DNA of 11,381 bases from an uncultured archaeon (GTDB lineage Archaea > Asgardarchaeota > Thorarchaeia > Thorarchaeales > Thorarchaeaceae), in the NCBI GenBank assembly GCA_964590575.1, contig CAZPWM010000056.1:1-11381 (forward strand), written 5' to 3'. Under the pieces are notes generated by a model. The model did no database searches. It was given only the letters and a program-made list of their open reading frames with translations, and was not told the DNA's origin. Shown here one piece after another: positions 2,977-9,376 of the stretch (its first letter is position 1; every line of letters begins with the position of its first letter). A program made the translations under genes and the position numbers.

Positions 2977-4500
2977 ATGGGGTTCAAGACTATGCCAGAT
3001 GATATCGATACTGATGCCATTAAACTCATCCGCTTGACTGGATTAAGAGAATCTGTGATTGACACAGCTCGTATGCAGAAAGGAGCTGACTGGGACCGTA
3101 TCCAGAAAGCTGTAGGTGAACACAATCGTTTCATATCTATGGGTGAGAAACACACCCGTCAGAAGGCAGTCCAAGACCCTGTGCATGGGGCTATACTACT
3201 TGAACCCTGGGAACTCGACATTATATCTACTTGGGAGATGCTAAGACTTAGATATGTGCGACAGTTGGGGCCGGCTCATTTAGTCTATCCGGGTGCTACA
3301 CACACACGATTCGAACACTGTCTGGGTACAAACTTCCTAGCGCAGAAATCCATCCGAGTTGTGAACTACTGCGAGGATTTAGATACTGCATGCTTCATGC
3401 CATTCTCTCGCCTCCTTGAAGATTACCATCAGAAACTGTTTCGAGCTGCAGCGCTACTGCATGATGTTGGACACCCTCCCACGAGCCATACTATCGAGTA
3501 TGCCCTTGAATCATGGATTGGTCTTGACCATCTCGACCTTGGCGAGTACCTTATACTCTATAGTAGCCTCACAGATGTTCTTACGCAGAATGGCATCGAA
3601 CCCAGTGATGTCGTTAGCATCCTTCGAAGACGCGCAAAGGATCCGGTCATGAGTCTACTCTCAGATTTTCTCGACCACCCTCTAGACATCGACAAGACAG
3701 ACTACCTCATTCGAGATGCACACTTCAGTGGAGTTCAGCTTGGCATATTCCCTGCTGAGAGAGTGATGTTGACCAATCGTGTGGTAAAAAACAAAGACGG
3801 CAAGTACATTCGCGCTTTCATGTTGAAGGCTATTCATTCATTGGAAGCATTGATTCTCAGCCGTAATTGGATGTTCAGTGATTTATACATCCACCCCACC
3901 GTCAAACTCGCTGAAGCACTAATCTCCAAGGCTACATACTTCAGGATGCAGGAGGAGGACCTATCAAAGAATGAGTGCATAGGTCTGTTTACGCGCATGA
4001 CCGATGGAGACCTTTTCAGATGGCTAGATGAATCTGAGATTGCTTTCGTTAAGGAGTATGCAGGCCGAATAAGATATCGCAAGTTGTTCAAGGTTGTGCT
4101 GTCGCGACCACTGGTATCCTTTGAGAAAGACACACAGAAGCTATTTCGTGAAACACTACACGACATCAAGAAACTGATAGATGCTGAGAATGAGATTGCT
4201 GAGGCACAAGGGAGTGTTGTGATTGACGTGGTTTCTCCGCCCCTTGGTGAAAACTTCTTGGGTTCAATCCCAATATTAGTGGGCGGTGTGAAGGGCTTCG
4301 ATATTGTCAATCTTGATGAGACCCAAGAAGGCCGCCCATTGATGCAAATCCTGAAGCAACAGTCACTGACGATACCTTCGGTCAGAGTTTATGCCGATAC
4401 AAAAATCGCGGAGAAGGTGCGAAAGCGTTTCGACCAGAGATACCCAGTTTCTGATACTCCTGCATACCGCGAAGATGAGTACGACCTCACCGAGTATTGA
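2977..4500 (+). CDS. HD-domain phosphohydrolase, SAMHD1/dNTP triphosphohydrolase-like
   Basis: Motifs DPVHG, RLRYVRQLG, YPGATHTRFEHCLG, LLHDVGH-x-P-x-SH, DIDKTDYLIRD, YIHP and MTD. The metal ligands H...HD...D are all present. Confidence 0.92.
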   Translation: MGFKTMPDDIDTDAIKLIRLTGLRESVIDTARMQKGADWDRIQKAVGEHNRFISMGEKHTRQKAVQDPVHGAILLEPWELDIISTWEMLRLRYVRQLGPAHLVYPGATHTRFEHCLGTNFLAQKSIRVVNYCEDLDTACFMPFSRLLEDYHQKLFRAAALLHDVGHPPTSHTIEYALESWIGLDHLDLGEYLILYSSLTDVLTQNGIEPSDVVSILRRRAKDPVMSLLSDFLDHPLDIDKTDYLIRDAHFSGVQLGIFPAERVMLTNRVVKNKDGKYIRAFMLKAIHSLEALILSRNWMFSDLYIHPTVKLAEALISKATYFRMQEEDLSKNECIGLFTRMTDGDLFRWLDESEIAFVKEYAGRIRYRKLFKVVLSRPLVSFEKDTQKLFRETLHDIKKLIDAENEIAEAQGSVVIDVVSPPLGENFLGSIPILVGGVKGFDIVNLDETQEGRPLMQILKQQSLTIPSVRVYADTKIAEKVRKRFDQRYPVSDTPAYREDEYDLTEY

Positions 4501-5185
4501 TCAGATGTGGTACTTTTTTCAATACCATCTTGTACTCAAACTCTAAGTAAATAATACCGTAGACTGCCTCCACAAGCGTACCTTTGTCATGGTCCATCTC
4601 TAATTGACTTGGTGGGTCGGGGTCAAAATGAATGCGGTACTCGTACAGATTCCACTTGTCGCAGAGTTTTGCCATGTGACTATTGCTCACTATCTCCGCC
4701 TTCCTCTGAGTGATCTTGCCTGCGTCACCTAGGTGTGGTTTCCATAGATGCTGAAGAACCGCTGATGAGATAACCGCATCACCTACCAGTGCCAGAACCT
4801 TCGCCATCTCTCCAAGGTTTATCATCTGTGCAAACCCGTCTGAACCAAGTGGGTCGTTTTCGCTTCTACGATACTGGGTTTCTAGCTCCATGAAGATATT
4901 CTTCGTACTTGGTTGAAACATCGTTACCTGAAAGAGTTCTTCGTTCTTGAAGTCAAGCTCGAATATTCTCTCTAAGTCCGGCACAAGGTCAGATTTTATC
5001 CTCTTCAAACTCTCTTGTATTGACCCAAGGTCCAACAACCATCGGTCCAGTTTCGTGAGTAATCTAGTGTTATTCTCCGGAGTTTCTCTTTGTGTTGCCT
5101 GAATTGTCTTGGTCAAGGCAGCGAGTCTATCTTCAATGTGTATTGGATTGTATGAGAGTGCTGGAATTTTATCCTCTTCCTTCAA
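4487..5185 (-). CDS. Ribonuclease III-domain protein lacking a dsRBD (Mini-III-like), with an N-terminal helical extension
   Basis: LALVGDAVI (RNase III signature), GKITQRKAEIVSN and KGTLVEAVYGIIYLE. The protein ends about 15 aa after the nuclease domain. The start is placed at TTG 5185 (GGAAGTGA upstream, 13 nt after the previous stop) rather than ATG 5269, which overlaps the upstream gene by 71 nt. Confidence 0.85.
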   Translation of the reverse strand: MKEEDKIPALSYNPIHIEDRLAALTKTIQATQRETPENNTRLLTKLDRWLLDLGSIQESLKRIKSDLVPDLERIFELDFKNEELFQVTMFQPSTKNIFMELETQYRRSENDPLGSDGFAQMINLGEMAKVLALVGDAVISSAVLQHLWKPHLGDAGKITQRKAEIVSNSHMAKLCDKWNLYEYRIHFDPDPPSQLEMDHDKGTLVEAVYGIIYLEFEYKMVLKKVPHLINTR

Positions 5186-5198
5186 AGAATCACTTCCT

Positions 5199-5978
5199 TC
5201 AGTAGTAGCTGACCTCCGCATCAGCAGCATCATATCGCGAAACATGGAATGCTGTTGTGGAGTATTCATGTGCTAGTTTTGCCATAGCTAATGTGATGAG
5301 GGTTGGTCCCAATGTCAGGTCGAAGATGATATTGTGGGTTTGAAGATGCTTGAGAATCTCGTTCTCAAGGAACTCGTAGGTCTTCTGCAGATTACCATAA
5401 TCCAATTCTTGCTCGCCTCCCATGACCTTTGTTGGAACCTCTCTCCATTCAGTTGTCCATACACGAAATGCGTCATCTGGGATAAACCGGTCCATAATAC
5501 GCGATACTCCTCGGGTCCAATGTAGCGCTTCGACAAAAACAAGTAGTTTCTTTGGATTGAAATAGGGGTTATTTACAAGCCACTGTACAAATGGGCGCTG
5601 GTCTTCTGGATTGTTCAACGAAGTAACATACATTAGCGGTTTTGTGATACCTAGAGCCTTGCGGACCGGATGTATTGCTCGCGGGTCCAACTCAAAGAGG
5701 CGATACTGAGATTGTTTCCAACTGACTATGATTCCAAGTTCTTCAAGTCGTTGTGTATTATGATAGAGTTTAGGACTTGTCACTTTGACCTTGGCGATCT
5801 CTTTCTTACTGGCACCTTCCGCTACCATCTGTGCTTTGATATCTGTAGTAATCTTTTCTCGGAGCTCTGCTCCTGTCAACAGTCCTCCCTCAAGCTGGTC
5901 CAGGATGATTCTCCTGGCTCGAACGGTTTCAATCTCTTCGAGGATAATTTCTTCAACAGGCTTCCTGAGCAATTTCAA
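5199..5978 (-). CDS. Winged-HTH (ArsR-like) transcription regulator with a C-terminal CARF-like Rossmann domain
   Basis: N-terminus RARRIILDQLEGGLLTGAEL...SPKLYHNTQRLEELGIIVSWKQSQYRLFEL fits a wHTH with an insertion. The C-terminus has strands LMYVTSL and PKKLLVFV and the motif IIFDLTLGPTLITLAMAKLA followed by AFHVS, like CARF motif II (D/N-x-T/S-G-G-x-K/R). TTG start. Confidence 0.72.
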   Translation of the reverse strand: MKLLRKPVEEIILEEIETVRARRIILDQLEGGLLTGAELREKITTDIKAQMVAEGASKKEIAKVKVTSPKLYHNTQRLEELGIIVSWKQSQYRLFELDPRAIHPVRKALGITKPLMYVTSLNNPEDQRPFVQWLVNNPYFNPKKLLVFVEALHWTRGVSRIMDRFIPDDAFRVWTTEWREVPTKVMGGEQELDYGNLQKTYEFLENEILKHLQTHNIIFDLTLGPTLITLAMAKLAHEYSTTAFHVSRYDAADAEVSYY

Positions 5979-6225
5979 GCACCTTTCGCGGATATATTAG
6001 CTAGTAATTATGAGTAGATTATTTTTATACTTATCGAAGATAAACATCCAGAAACGGCGAAAAACGGCGTGAAATAGCTCAACAATATACATAATTCAAA
6101 TACTTTTCGAATAAGTCGGCACCTGTCGGACGTACCCTTAAATATCTTCTTCATGAACAAATTGCTAGAACAGAGTCTCAAAAGCTCTGAGCTGATCAAC
6201 AATCACAAACGAGGACCGATAAAAA
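5979..6225. promoter_or_regulatory. Divergent promoter region between the regulator and actin
   Basis: 247-bp AT-rich gap. Minus-strand TATAAAAATA at 6020-6029, plus-strand TTAAATA at 6139-6145, GAGG at 6211-6214, and several short repeats (see findings). Confidence 0.65.
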
Positions 6226-7365
6226 ATGGCTGAAGACGAGTTTCTTGGCGCTAAGCCCGTTGTCATCGACAATGGTACTGGCTTGAGCAAGAACGGTTAC
6301 GCAGGCGAAGATCAGCCACGAAGCGTTTGGCCCACACTAATTGGATATCCACGATACGAGTCAATCATGACTGACGTGGACCACTACACACGTGACTACT
6401 ATATTGGTGAAGAGGCTATCAACCTCCGTGGTGTACTCCGTCTGGTCTATCCTATCTCTCACGGTAAGATAGAAGACTGGGATGCTATCGAGAAGATATG
6501 GAGCTATACGTTCTATAACGACTTAAAGATAGACCCAAGTGAGAATCCGGTGCTCCTCACAGAGGCACCATTCAACCCTAGAGAAAACAGAGAGCGTATG
6601 GCATCTGTCATGTTCGATAACTTCGGCGTGCCTGCAGTGTACGTAGCCACACAGGCTGTACTGTCACTGTACGCATCTGGAAGGACCACTGGTCTGGTCA
6701 TTGACTCAGGCGATGGTGTGACCCACATAGTACCAATCTATGAGGGCTTTTCAATCAACCACGCTATCCGAAGAATTGACCTGGCTGGTCGAGACATCAC
6801 CGAGTATCTGCGCAGACTCCTCAGACAGAGGGGTTACACTTTTGTGAGTGGTGCAGAGAAAGAGATTGTCAGAGATGTCAAAGAGAAGCTCTGTTATGTA
6901 GCTCTTGATCCCGAGAGGGAGAGGACAGTTGCTGACAAGGCTGGTGTTGACAAACCTTACATGTTACCCGACGGTGAGGTAATCACTGTTGGTGCAGAGA
7001 GGTTCCAAGCCCCCGAGCTGTTCTTCAACCCAAGTGCCATTGGTCTAGATACTATGCCACTCGACGACCACATTGTCGAGTCAATCAAGGCCTGTGACGT
7101 CGACTTGAGGCGTGATCTGTACGCCAACATCGTACTATCAGGTGGCTCAACCATGTTCCCAGGGCTCAAGGAGAGGCTCCACAAGGAGATCACCGAGCTA
7201 GTCCCAGAGAACATCGAGGTCCGAATCATCGCTCCTCCCGAGAGACAGTACTCTGTCTGGATTGGTGGAAGCATTCTCGGCTCACTCAAGACATTCCAGA
7301 AGATGTGGGTGTCCAAGAAGGAGTTCGAGGAAGTAGGACCCGAAGTGATACACCGCTGTATCTAG
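6226..7365 (+). CDS. Asgard actin (Lokiactin-like, close to eukaryotic actin)
   Basis: 379 aa, collinear with eukaryotic actin: [130 protein letters not shown]-terminal HRCI. Confidence 0.98.
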
Positions 7366-7386
7366 TACACAACCTAGTTTCCGAAG
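7320..7386 (+). repeat. Direct repeat copy 1 (actin 3' end plus downstream TAGTTTCCGAAG)
   Basis: 7320-7366 matches 7660-7706 at 45 of 47 positions, and 7375-7386 is identical to 7713-7724. Confidence 0.95.
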
Positions 7387-7424
7387 GTGGGCTGCAAGGC
7401 CCCCTTCGTACTCTCTTTTCTTCT
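7382..7424 (+). terminator. Hairpin plus pyrimidine tract after actin
   Basis: CGAAGG-T-GGGCT-GCAA-GGCCC-CCTTCG (GNRA loop, one bulge) followed by TACTCTCTTTTCTTCT. Confidence 0.75.
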
Positions 7425-7659
7425 ATCTCTAATAACTGACTAAAATCTTCTTCAAGTTTTTCCAATTCGTTGCTAAAAATCAAGATTAAACTTTTATCCT
7501 TTTTTTAAATATCTAATATTCATCTATTACTATAAACACTTGATTAAACATTGACACTCTTTATTATTTCCTTTATCATAGTATCTAGATTGCGTTTAAT
7601 CTACCAGGGGGGGTCATTGTTTTTGCTTACAATAATTGAAATCCTACTGGTTATCACTT

Positions 7660-7724
7660 GGAGCTCGAGGAAGTAGGACACGAAGTGATACACCGCTGTA
7701 TCTAGTGTGCTTTAGTTTCCGAAG
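7660..7724 (+). repeat. Direct repeat copy 2 (orphan actin 3' fragment encoding ELEEVGHEVIHRCI*)
   Basis: 340 bp downstream of copy 1. Mismatches only at 7324/7664 and 7340/7680. No upstream actin sequence is attached. Confidence 0.95.
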
Positions 7725-7756
7725 AGGGATTCATTTCCTCTTCGCTCTCTTGTTTT
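7720..7756 (+). terminator. Hairpin plus pyrimidine tract, copy 2
   Basis: CGAAGAGGGA-TTCAT-TTCCTCTTCG (10 bp, one G-U pair) followed by CTCTCTTGTTTT. Confidence 0.7.
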
Positions 7757-7816
7757 GAAATTTCTAAGACTTCTGAAAAGAGAAGATTCTTGAATCTACG
7801 ATGATATTCTTGTTCT

Positions 7817-8518
7817 ATGGACGGGAGTTTGAAGAAGAGACTGCTAGTAGTCCTAATCATTGGTACAATTGGCATCTCTGCGGTCACATTTATGGTGTTG
7901 CAATCTCAACGAGGAGTCATTATCTCTGGAACCAATCTCACATGGGCCTTCAATGAAGGTGATGAGATCTCATTCGCTGTGAATGTGACAGGGAGCGAAT
8001 CATCTTGGTATGGTGAAAACACGTTTACTGAGTTCAATTGGTCTTCTGATAATGTAACTCTACGAGTTCTTGAGTTACCCGAAATTCCAAGTAGTGTTGA
8101 TAAGAACCTCTTCATCACAGACATTATTGTACCCACGAAAATCCAATGCATCTCAACCGAGATTCCACAGAATTATTCATCCCTACTTGTTTCCATTCTA
8201 TCCAAATTTCTCCTTCCAACAGAGTCTTGGGATATGCTAGACTTGATGTTTGATGATAGTCTTCCAACAGCTGGAGGCTATCCCCCTCTAAACGACCTTG
8301 AGTTTGATACAGATTACTTTGCTGGAATTTTTTATGACTCAAGTTTCTACTTAGGACTAAGACGATTTAGTGATCGTTTTCCAAACTGGAGTACGGAAAC
8401 ATGGACTGGTTGGATAGACCTCGAATCAGGAATCCCTGATGTCGTAACCTACCAAAAGTATGTGCCTGATTGTACGGCCTCCTATTCAATATCTATGAGT
8501 GTGAGAATGAACTCTTAA
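7817..8518 (+). CDS. Hypothetical exported or N-terminally membrane-anchored protein
   Basis: KKR followed by the hydrophobic stretch LLVVLIIGTIGISAVTFMVL. The rest is acidic, rich in Ser/Thr and aromatics, with several N-x-S/T sequons (NLT, NVT, NWS, NYS). Confidence 0.8.
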   Translation: MDGSLKKRLLVVLIIGTIGISAVTFMVLQSQRGVIISGTNLTWAFNEGDEISFAVNVTGSESSWYGENTFTEFNWSSDNVTLRVLELPEIPSSVDKNLFITDIIVPTKIQCISTEIPQNYSSLLVSILSKFLLPTESWDMLDLMFDDSLPTAGGYPPLNDLEFDTDYFAGIFYDSSFYLGLRRFSDRFPNWSTETWTGWIDLESGIPDVVTYQKYVPDCTASYSISMSVRMNS

Positions 8519-8637
8519 TCACTCCAATTCAAGCCAGCTCTAGATTTCCTAAGGCGGTTTGTTATCCCTCCTCGAACCTCTTTCTTCGTTTACAAACCCT
8601 GTTGCTCTCGAAGATTAAGACGGGTATAAGTAGGATT

Positions 8638-8680
8638 AACGAAGAGGGACCTTTCCCTCTTCGTTCTCTTGTTTTCTTTC
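8638..8680 (+). terminator. Hairpin plus pyrimidine tract, copy 3
   Basis: Perfect 12-bp stem AACGAAGAGGGA-CCTT-TCCCTCTTCGTT followed by CTCTTGTTTTCTTTC. Confidence 0.75.
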
Positions 8681-8746: not shown

Positions 8747-9376
8747 TCACTTTCTATTTGATGTTCCCATCAAGTAGCTACCAAAGGCAATACTCCAGGC
8801 AAGAATGGGATCAATTGCCCAACGTTCCATGGACCCCTTTGCCATTCCGAGAAATGTTTCAGTTGATCCAAACGGAAGTCCTAGATATGGGATGAAAACC
8901 ATTGCTAAGATAAATGACATGAGTCCAAGGACTACTGAGATAATCGACATGGGTTTAGCTTGATAGGCATAGGAACCAACAGCTGCAAACGATCCAAACA
9001 AGATTGCTAGTAGAGTGAATACACTGTGCATGGGCTGCAGATTTGCTGGAAATACACCCACTCCCATTGCACCTATTCCACAGATAGTTAAGAGAATCGG
9101 TAGAAGTATTCTTTTTTGAGCCTTGTACAAAAAGAATGTTCCAAGTACAATGAATGCTCCTAACAAAAAGACTGATAGATTGTAAATGAACGCAGTTGGT
9201 CCAGTTCCGAGGTCACTGACATAGTCGATACGGCTACTATATCCATCATACCATGATTCTGCGGCAAGCATGCCCAAGAACCACTGAACGCCTCCGAGTA
9301 GAAAGAAGCTACCGCTTAGAGTTGTCGTATCGAACCGCTTTGTTAGACTAGTTATTGAAGTTACAGATTTAGACAT
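8747..9376 (-). CDS. DUF998-family integral membrane protein
   Basis: About 6 hydrophobic helices with GYS-x4-YVSDLG, IYN, GVGVFP, a conserved His (PMHSV) and G-x-x-ER near the C-terminus. Confidence 0.85.
   Translation of the reverse strand: MSKSVTSITSLTKRFDTTTLSGSFFLLGGVQWFLGMLAAESWYDGYSSRIDYVSDLGTGPTAFIYNLSVFLLGAFIVLGTFFLYKAQKRILLPILLTICGIGAMGVGVFPANLQPMHSVFTLLAILFGSFAAVGSYAYQAKPMSIISVVLGLMSFILAMVFIPYLGLPFGSTETFLGMAKGSMERWAIDPILAWSIAFGSYLMGTSNRK

Follow-up and report, generated by a model that had tools for sequence, protein, structure and literature searches.

In a genus of Thorarchaeota, the 3' end of the actin gene is followed by an array of accessory genes whose cassettes are bounded by copies of one repeat unit of about 100 nt, and the stretch of DNA described here carries such an array. 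The window, i.e. the whole stretch of 11,381 nucleotides that was analyzed, forms the first 11.4 kb of the 19.8-kb contig C56 (CAZPWM010000056.1) in the 3.4-Mb genome G000 (assembly GCA_964590575.1) of an uncultured archaeon of the Thorarchaeaceae. An earlier interpretation made from the letters alone (the sequence-only reading) had pointed out that the last codons of actin are duplicated 340 nt downstream and had likened the two copies to the attL/attR scar of a single integrated element. Its idea of an integration site at the actin 3' end is right in substance and too narrow: instead of a single scar, the copies represent one step of a multi-cassette array. The 47-nt duplicate is probably a recombination-site repeat that marks the boundary of an accessory-cassette array behind actin, and this array probably arose by repeated Campbell-type insertion.

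The repeat finder recovered positions 7320-7366 and 7660-7706 as a direct repeat with 45 of 47 identical positions (96%, spacing 340, family D1). Copy 1 comprises the last 14 actin codons and the TAG stop of the open reading frame (ORF) at 6226-7365, which ends with GAG TTC GAG GAA GTA GGA CCC GAA GTG ATA CAC CGC TGT ATC TAG. Both copies are followed by the 12-mer TAGTTTCCGAAG, 100% identical in the two places (family D4), by a hairpin with a stem that opens with CGAAG, closes with CTTCG and differs in its inner part, and by a T-rich tract. A shared sequence behind both copies, the related hairpins and the AT-rich DNA between the copies had all been described in the sequence-only reading and were confirmed; the G+C content of 7400-7659 is 29%, compared with 43% in the genome. 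The duplication is not due to chance: from base composition, about 6e-17 pairs with at least 45/47 identity are expected in the window, and the longest exact direct repeat measures 26 nt, a length that none of 100 mononucleotide shuffles approached (17 nt at most).

A third, tail-poor copy of the hairpin, which had been overlooked, is located at 8634-8676 past the next gene; a search within the own genome matched it at 8640-8675, where 36 nt are 86% identical to unit 2. The repeat forms part of a unit of about 100 nt, consisting of the last ~15 actin codons, the stop codon, a linker of 6-9 nt, the hairpin and the T-rich tract. In its hairpin consensus, (T/C)AGTTT(CC/AA)GAAG runs into a stem of 10-11 bp with a loop of 4-6 nt, followed by CTCTCTTGTTTTT. 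With an nhmmer model built from 56 of 59 aligned copies of relatives, exactly three units were detected in the whole genome, all on C56 and all on the actin strand (see table), and regular expressions for the hairpin motif agreed; neither BLAST nor regular expressions nor nhmmer found a unit outside C56 in G000. Since there are only three genome copies at one locus, the unit is not a general terminator motif or dispersed repeat, and a genome-wide repeat resembling miniature inverted-repeat transposable elements or repetitive extragenic palindromic sequences was rejected, all three copies being at one locus and on one strand. The hairpin of unit 1 belongs to type A with one bulged T (-19.3 kcal/mol, z -4.4); folds of -14.6 kcal/mol (z -4.1) and -21.5 kcal/mol (z -6.1) were obtained for the type B hairpins of units 2 and 3. 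A reading frame across the tail of unit 2 opens only at 7640, after a TGA, and in the decayed tail upstream of unit 3 about 19 of 33 positions still match by eye. Rfam and tRNA scans of the window gave no match.

Features of the actin array in the window (coordinates in nt; E, expectation value)
Feature	Coordinates	Strand	Parts	Support and remarks
Actin gene, 379 aa	6226..7365	+	last ~15 codons + stop = left part of unit 1	ORF; Pfam Actin E 3.2e-131
Unit 1	7318..7419	+	tail 7320-7366 (stop 7363-7365), linker, TAGTTTCCGAAG 7375-7386, hairpin 7382-7408, T-rich tract to 7419	nhmmer model positions 1-100, E 9e-29; repeat families D1, D4
AT-rich non-coding spacer (putative empty or decayed cassette)	7420..7659	.		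stops in every frame; no similar DNA in fetched relatives
Unit 2	7660..7757	+	untranslated actin-tail copy 7660-7706, linker, TAGTTTCCGAAG 7713-7724, hairpin 7720-7744, T-rich tract	nhmmer model positions 3-102, E 5e-27
Cargo gene of second cassette, 233 aa	7817..8518	+	N-terminal hydrophobic segment	no Pfam or PADLOC family
Unit 3	8634..8676	+	hairpin 8638-8665 (type B), T-rich tract	nhmmer model positions 57-102, E 1e-6
DUF998 membrane protein gene	8747..9376	-		Pfam DUF998 E 5e-16; convergent with actin; usual right-hand flank of the array

The unit is widespread in the genus. When positions 7300-7410 were used as query in a DNA search of 28 genomes of the same Thorarchaeota genus, the unit was present in 26 of them, often in several copies; the actin 3' end is unassembled or actin itself is missing in the other two. 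A tally of fetched stretches gives two or more units (2 to 8 copies) for at least 19 of the 28 genomes. In the 20 genomes of the genus with a full-length match, the actin protein shows 97-98% identity, secondary matches to the protein cover residues 357-379 (G015, ~5 kb downstream) and 362-379 (G016), and in the same protein search the contigs of G001 and G019 ended at the actin tail. For a comparison of the arrays, the actin-downstream regions of relatives and 32 metagenome stretches holding a 24-mer of the tail were all oriented by actin. nhmmer detected 129 units in 60 oriented stretches, all of them on the actin strand (69 are informative beyond the one match per stretch that fixes the orientation); several metagenome stretches duplicate genome contigs, so the unit counts are not independent. 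One unit was found in 22 stretches, two in another 22, three in 10 and four to eight in the remaining 6, and the spacing between units ranged from 332 to 3430 nt with a median of 785 nt. The largest arrays hold four units on a genome contig (G015) and eight on a metagenome contig (L090).

Empty and occupied sites occur at the same place in different genomes. A single unit with ordinary genes next to it was found in G001, G003, G014, G019 and G041, and in G019 only 74 nt lie between the actin stop and the stop of the convergent DUF998 gene. The order of the genes on the upstream side of actin is constant (genes for a CDP-alcohol phosphatidyltransferase, a propeller protein, an HD protein, an RNase III-like protein and a CARF protein). 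On the downstream side it varies up to the DUF998 gene and a metallophosphoesterase gene, and DUF998 stands directly behind the last unit in G000, G007, G011, G019, G024 and L090. The order of cassettes is permuted as well: the DUF998 gene precedes the gene for the 233-aa protein in G020 and G016 and follows it in the window. With empty sites and larger inserts in sister genomes, the comparison suggested in the sequence-only reading shows the actin 3' end to be a site of repeated insertion. Outside the genus, no tail duplicate was present at eight actin loci within 1.5 kb on each side, a flank too short to exclude distant copies. Gain or loss within a species is not visible in this material, no fetched contig being closer than ~88% to the window.

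The cargo of the arrays is diverse. By a simple greedy call of ORFs of at least 80 aa, 78 ORFs in 41 families were counted in the regions from the first to the last unit; the plus strand carries 37 of them and the minus strand 41. The cassettes measure 0.3-3.4 kb and mostly contain a single gene. Pfam names were obtained for a nitroreductase, a deaminase-TPR protein, a 1038-aa radical-SAM/HD/B12 protein, S15 and S9 peptidases, ArsR and TetR regulators, DUF1801, DinB, a short-chain dehydrogenase, a NUDIX protein, a thioesterase, a geranylgeranyl-reductase-like flavoprotein, a histidine-kinase ATPase, a beta-lactamase-fold hydrolase, and TPR and LRR proteins. A three-gene ABC transporter, named from its sequence only, is also included. 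The 233-aa protein of the window, a membrane or secreted protein, has hypothetical proteins of Thorarchaeota and Bathyarchaeota as nearest Atlas clusters. Its homologues in G020 and G016 are likewise bounded by units, there beyond the DUF998 gene, and the right flank of unit 2 is 92% identical to the sequence that precedes the orthologous gene in G020. All six frames of the spacer that separates units 1 and 2 are interrupted by stop codons. None of the fetched relatives contains DNA similar to it, and its protein matches are limited to those at chance level or overlapping a unit. At 7581-7594 the spacer contains GTATCTAGATTGCG, a 14-mer identical to the tail/linker junction of unit 2 in the relative G004, which suggests that the spacer represents the remains of something larger. 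The earlier claim that the inserted element has been mostly deleted is plausible in view of this junction relic and the non-coding spacer of ~250 nt; no integrase-bearing element with the motif was found.

Some of the cassettes have moved. A nitroreductase cassette was found in G007, G022 and two strains of G016, and in alignments the homology extends from the linker/hairpin on the left through the gene to the tail copy on the right, beyond which the genomes differ on both sides. The nitroreductase DNA is 93-94% identical among these genomes, compared with 67-73% for the neighboring core gene, and the cassette of family f24 shows 85% as against 68% for the core gene. Because both are more alike than the core gene, they moved between species recently. 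An occupied and an empty state can be compared in the close relatives G007 and G017, in which the core gene is 87% identical. The f8 cassette lies directly behind actin in G017, and in G007 the nitroreductase cassette is interposed between actin and f8; the linker and hairpin preceding f8 (AATTAGTTT...) stand at actin in G017, whereas in G007 they follow the inserted tail copy. Such an arrangement is expected from one crossover between a circle (linker, hairpin, cargo, tail) and the resident unit. Across cassettes with unrelated cargo the left edge of the tail copies is sharp, at ~7312-7320, and a contig of the public run X1 breaks at 7312 as well. Tail-less units arise by deletion with hairpin and T-tract kept, and are frequent among distal units such as unit 3 of the window. 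The metagenome contig L107 (1126 nt) has a tail copy at both ends, a structure that any assembler gives for a repeat-bounded cassette, and unit-bearing contigs without actin (G015:C181, G010:C228, G010:C264, G043:C267, L102, L092, L110, L112) are array fragments or cargo and contain no recombinase.

The hairpin is conserved as a structure. When 82 distinct copies were folded, 74 gave z values below -2 relative to shuffles, with a mean of -16 kcal/mol. RNAalifold predicted no pairs on the MAFFT alignment of the 82 hairpins, in which the bulged base shifts the two stem types against each other; hairpins were therefore folded copy by copy, and covariation was counted on the six outer pairs only. 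At these six pairs 94.6% of the cells are paired, a value that drops to 47-59% if the partner is slid. At one position of the stem, 39 copies have an A-U pair and 38 a G-C pair, which may reflect few events, and the two strains binned in G016 combine identical flanks and loop with compensating stem changes. The simplest reading of hairpin and T-tract is a transcription terminator that would insulate actin and each cassette; the hairpin may also be a protein-binding inverted repeat at the core of a recombination site.

For the origin of the array we propose that a circular DNA with one unit and cargo would recombine with the unit at the actin end, the crossover lying within the tail or immediately behind it. 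Linker, hairpin and cargo of the circle would end up directly behind an intact actin gene, and the circle's tail copy, fused to the old hairpin, would be shifted downstream. In the window, the newest event would have produced unit 1, the now gene-less spacer of ~240 nt and unit 2; the hairpin of unit 1, the spacer and the tail of unit 2 would have arrived together. The hairpin of unit 2 would be the former actin terminator, derived from the cassette with the 233-aa gene, and this older cassette would end at the decayed unit 3. Selection maintains hairpin and T-tract. The anatomy of the array, its distribution over the genus, empty and occupied sites and the movement of some cassettes are observed; the circular intermediate and the enzyme we infer. 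The array may have been founded by integrase-type elements that targeted the conserved actin 3' end, with the present cassettes as integrase-less passengers that would later be moved in trans or by homologous recombination between units. Such a founding is favored by the type of target, the sharp common left edge and a triple repeat similar to a tRNA 3' end on contig C6 of the same genome (see below). That the cassettes are passengers is suggested by the lack of a recombinase in the cassettes and on C56 and of a unit in viral, phage or plasmid records. The mover, we infer, would be one of three: a trans-acting integrase from elements that are not captured in the genome bins, homologous recombination of the host, or an enzyme of an unrecognized family.

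Several results weigh against this proposal, above all the outcome of the searches for an enzyme and for a mobile form. A Pfam scan of 50 proteins in or beside the arrays of relatives revealed no recombinase, and neither did scans of the ORFs on contig C56, in agreement with the sequence-only reading, which had seen no integrase in the window. The nearest hints among the arrays were an HNH endonuclease on L102 and a sub-threshold resolvase-type helix-turn-helix inside a TetR protein. Matches to the tyrosine recombinase family PF00589 occurred in only 9 of the 28 genomes, none of them on a contig with a unit, and nowhere in G000; no unit was present at the six integrase loci that were fetched. 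PF16795 was found in none of five genomes and PF00239 above the cut-off in one of five. The viral or plasmid contig with the motif beside a recombinase and the excision junction for which the sequence-only reading had suggested to look were not encountered: no viral contig matched any of four exact patterns, BLAST returned no similar phage or plasmid record, and contigs of public runs contained no excision or circle junction, a weak negative as contigs drop rare forms. Of the six cassette families tested, four (f26, f28, f8, DUF998) have diverged to about the same extent as the core gene, so that most cassettes are old and not actively hopping, and most of the array is passed on vertically with only occasional remodeling. 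The Campbell model also leaves unexplained how unrelated genes each became flanked by units. Contigs of the RNA run X8 cover the actin ORF to 7365 only and are uninformative on termination or cassette expression.

Two candidates for the enzyme were rejected. The conserved upstream neighbor orf259, considered as a recombinase, is the CARF-domain protein, and f28, a frequent cassette protein of integrase-like size (~310 aa), has a signal peptide and a C-terminal anchor and is a surface protein. With respect to tyrosine recombinases in general, no PF00589 match was obtained in 19 of the 28 genomes. Five of the seven best bins (completeness of at least 90%, contamination of at most 5%) belong to these 19, and a Xer-type chromosome resolvase seems to be absent or unrecognizable in the genus. 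Three tyrosine-recombinase genes stand in a row on a 2.4-kb contig of G020 (C116, 394-2727, locus L130).

Homologous recombination alone is possible as an explanation of the array, clearly less probable than Campbell-type insertion at a recombination site. Two units of ~100 nt would loop out a cassette as a circle, which would reinsert at any unit, as would DNA from a relative; no site-specific enzyme would act now, and none would ever have been needed after a single founding duplication. The units are 80-96% identical over ~100 nt, units with mixed hairpin arms or the right arm only exist (G015 at 11410, G012 at 1774, G020c424 at 831), cassette order is permuted between close relatives, and both the lack of an integrase in any cassette and the 19 genomes without a tyrosine recombinase match fit this explanation. 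It does not account for the founding duplication or for the same left edge in 41 unrelated cargo families, and it gives no reason to expect a conserved hairpin, except if the hairpin is a terminator and nothing else. In addition, the 3' end of a conserved gene with its terminator is a typical integrase target, and the genome also contains the tRNA-3'-end-like triple repeat.

A rather unlikely extension of these ideas is that Thorarchaeota possess an integron-like capture system independent of known integrases, in which an unrecognized recombinase or specialized host recombination would place single-gene cassettes at the site formed by actin 3' end and terminator, with further arrays on contigs C102 and C6. 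Improbable, too, is an integron-like platform for gene capture in which a chromosomal recombinase of an unrecognized family, acting in trans, would move cassettes at the hairpin unit and the actin terminator would be the primary attachment site. Up to eight units in one orientation, mostly single-gene cassettes, compensating changes that maintain the hairpin, proximal units that are the most intact with distal ones often tail-less, and a second array with a different hairpin unit on C102 of the same genome would suit such a platform. No candidate enzyme was found for it, the conserved neighbors of actin being CARF, RNase III-like and HD proteins, and the age of most cassettes equals that of the species. 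Inspected by eye, the unit appears to lack the R''/R' boxes of attC sites, with no R' box visible after the stem of the conserved hairpin, and the cargo lies on both strands, unlike integron cassettes.

Clusters of attC sites without an integrase are reported by Ghaly et al. (2022, PMC9668308) to be enriched in Asgard genomes, which would also speak for such a platform. Like the archaeal integrons and attC clusters described there, the actin locus combines arrays of small cassettes, structured repeats and mostly accessory cargo, often with no integrase nearby. Integron cassettes generally share one orientation and integron attC sites have conserved boxes beside intI/attI; in the actin array the repeat includes a piece of actin coding sequence, there is no IntI, and no tyrosine recombinase occurs on C56 or in G000 that could stand as intI beside an attI. 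The second group of relatives in terms of architecture are archaeal integrated elements, for which tRNA genes or 3'-distal portions of protein-coding genes serve as targets and which form tandem arrays (Krupovic et al. 2019, PMC6563490). As in those arrays, the target is the 3' end of a conserved gene that is restored by the incoming copy, direct repeats flank the inserts, the site is reused, and relatives show it empty or occupied by other inserts. Unlike the inserts at actin, which are integrase-less, mostly single genes and 0.3-3.4 kb long, these elements carry an integrase or casposase and measure several kb or more; their att repeats in Thaumarchaeota are described as short, compared with ~100 nt including a hairpin in the actin array. 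Actin is not named as integration target in excerpts of the literature on Asgard or archaeal mobile elements, including PMC8813620, PMC9668308, PMC11529989 and PMC6563490, the supplementary tables of which may list targets. The actin array shares the logic of both integrated-element arrays and attC clusters, and falls outside the definition of either because its inserts contain no integrase, there is no intI/attI, and cargo is found on two strands.

Two bacterial systems offer further parallels. At the 3' end of fda in Streptococcus thermophilus, cis-mobilisable elements without integrase are flanked by att sites, stand in tandem and are thought to be moved by a related element; in their case a cognate integrative conjugative element is known, and its integrase acts at the same site. 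The actin cassettes resemble them in being repeat-bounded, integrase-less and in tandem at the 3' end of a conserved protein gene, and differ in that no helper was found. In genomic islands of marine cyanobacteria, 3' ends of tRNA genes are repeated and phage integrases have been implicated. There, as at actin, several copies of a gene 3' end mark the repeated remodeling of one hypervariable island; unlike these islands, the actin array targets a protein gene and no integrase was found, and G000 itself contains the tRNA-3'-end-like repeat on C6.

A relic of tandem actin duplication, i.e. a decayed second paralogue, or local unequal crossing-over without incoming DNA is very improbable. The extra copy is close to the actin tail of the window itself (45/47), as a duplication would have it; no second actin exists downstream in any of the 28 genomes of the genus, nor in any of 41 genomes searched, and every tail copy ends at the same left edge, ~50-60 nt into the gene. 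Between the copies lie 41 unrelated cargo families, and the spacer of the window resembles nothing in actin or in relatives. The alternative offered in the sequence-only reading, a collapsed tandem duplication of actin, is thereby refuted, the extra copies holding at most ~60 nt of the gene. A casposon or transposon with terminal inverted repeats and a short target-site duplication was rejected, as the repeats are ~100 nt long and direct and the only inverted pair in 6000-8500 is the 13-mer at 7044/7577; Cas1 was not searched for.

Relatives' contigs often break at the unit (G001, G004, G007, G008, G019, G020) and the site is hard to assemble; a mis-joining of strain variants at a repeated k-mer can practically be dismissed, since the two copies differ at two positions and in linker and hairpin, since contigs of three public runs extend from copy 1 or from the spacer across copy 2 and into the next gene (X1 record 7, 7338-7895, 1 difference; X2 record 10, 7420-8320, 21 differences; X3 record 15, 7442-7814, no difference), and since the same architecture recurs across many independent assemblies. 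Runs X1-X3 may include the source sample of the genome and are not fully independent; independent support for the structure comes from the many independently assembled relatives. The view of the sequence-only reading that the repeat is not a simple assembly artefact thus holds. Exact direct repeats of 55 nt with a spacing of 155 nt were observed on five contigs, C56 (11327-11381/11482-11536), C20, C107, C129 and C148. These look like an assembler artefact, and the first C56 copy reaches the last bases of the window.

Actin is a hallmark eukaryote-like protein, and across the whole genus its gene forms the fixed anchor of a hypervariable array of accessory genes. To our knowledge, very few mobile elements of Asgard archaea and their insertion sites are known, though gene gain and loss in this group is studied. 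The array offers a precise boundary unit of ~100 nt and at least two recently moved cassettes, and the locus can be addressed by polymerase chain reaction (PCR), both for tracking gene flow in natural Thorarchaeota populations and for seeking the enzyme that would move the integrase-less cassettes. In practical terms, genome bins of the genus break exactly at the actin array, which knowledge of the locus helps to correct, and short actin-like fragments downstream of actin should be annotated as recombination scars, not as pseudogenes.

Some observations concern the neighborhood of actin and the actin frame itself. The CARF-domain protein is encoded at 5199-5978 on the minus strand (PADLOC CARF_m5, E 6e-25; no Pfam match over the cut-off), its gene overlaps by 70 nt with the RNase III-like gene (4487-5269, minus strand), and the HD-domain gene follows at 2977-4500 on the plus strand; the order CARF/RNase III-like/HD is kept genus-wide. 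A perfect inverted repeat of 13 nt (7044-7056/7577-7589) has one arm in actin and the other in the spacer, where it overlaps the 14-nt relic. In the metagenome loci L094, L100, L103 and L120 the actin frame is present as two ORFs (111 aa and 255 aa, ~100 nt apart), which could be due to a frameshift, a stop codon or an insertion. The actin match in G026 (C1, 534612-535773), a 1.4-Mb genome of the same phylum assembled as one contig, is divided close to the 3' end into overlapping parts (residues 4-364 and 340-378), suggesting a frameshift or a local duplication. The third cassette of G015 (L033, 5444-8493) is a four-gene block without Pfam matches, the first protein of which corresponds to PADLOC PDC-M19A (E 5e-15); the actin array may also carry defence or toxin-antitoxin-like cargo.

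Repeats of other types were seen elsewhere in G000. On contig C6 (25916-30295; locus L127, ~3917-8296), a repeat of 37-52 nt occurs three times, 1.2 and 3.1 kb apart. It resembles a tRNA 3' end (T-arm and acceptor end), and neither ARAGORN nor Rfam detected a complete tRNA. Between its copies lie DUF3800, octopine-dehydrogenase-like and B12-binding mutase-like genes and no integrase. Contig C102 (locus L128) contains a second cassette-like array, with a different unit of ~75 nt, again composed of hairpin and T-tract, present four times at ~1042, 1917, 4118 and 5845; its blocks hold a rhodanese gene, a PIN-domain gene and several paralogous genes for PEMT/ICMT-like membrane methyltransferases.

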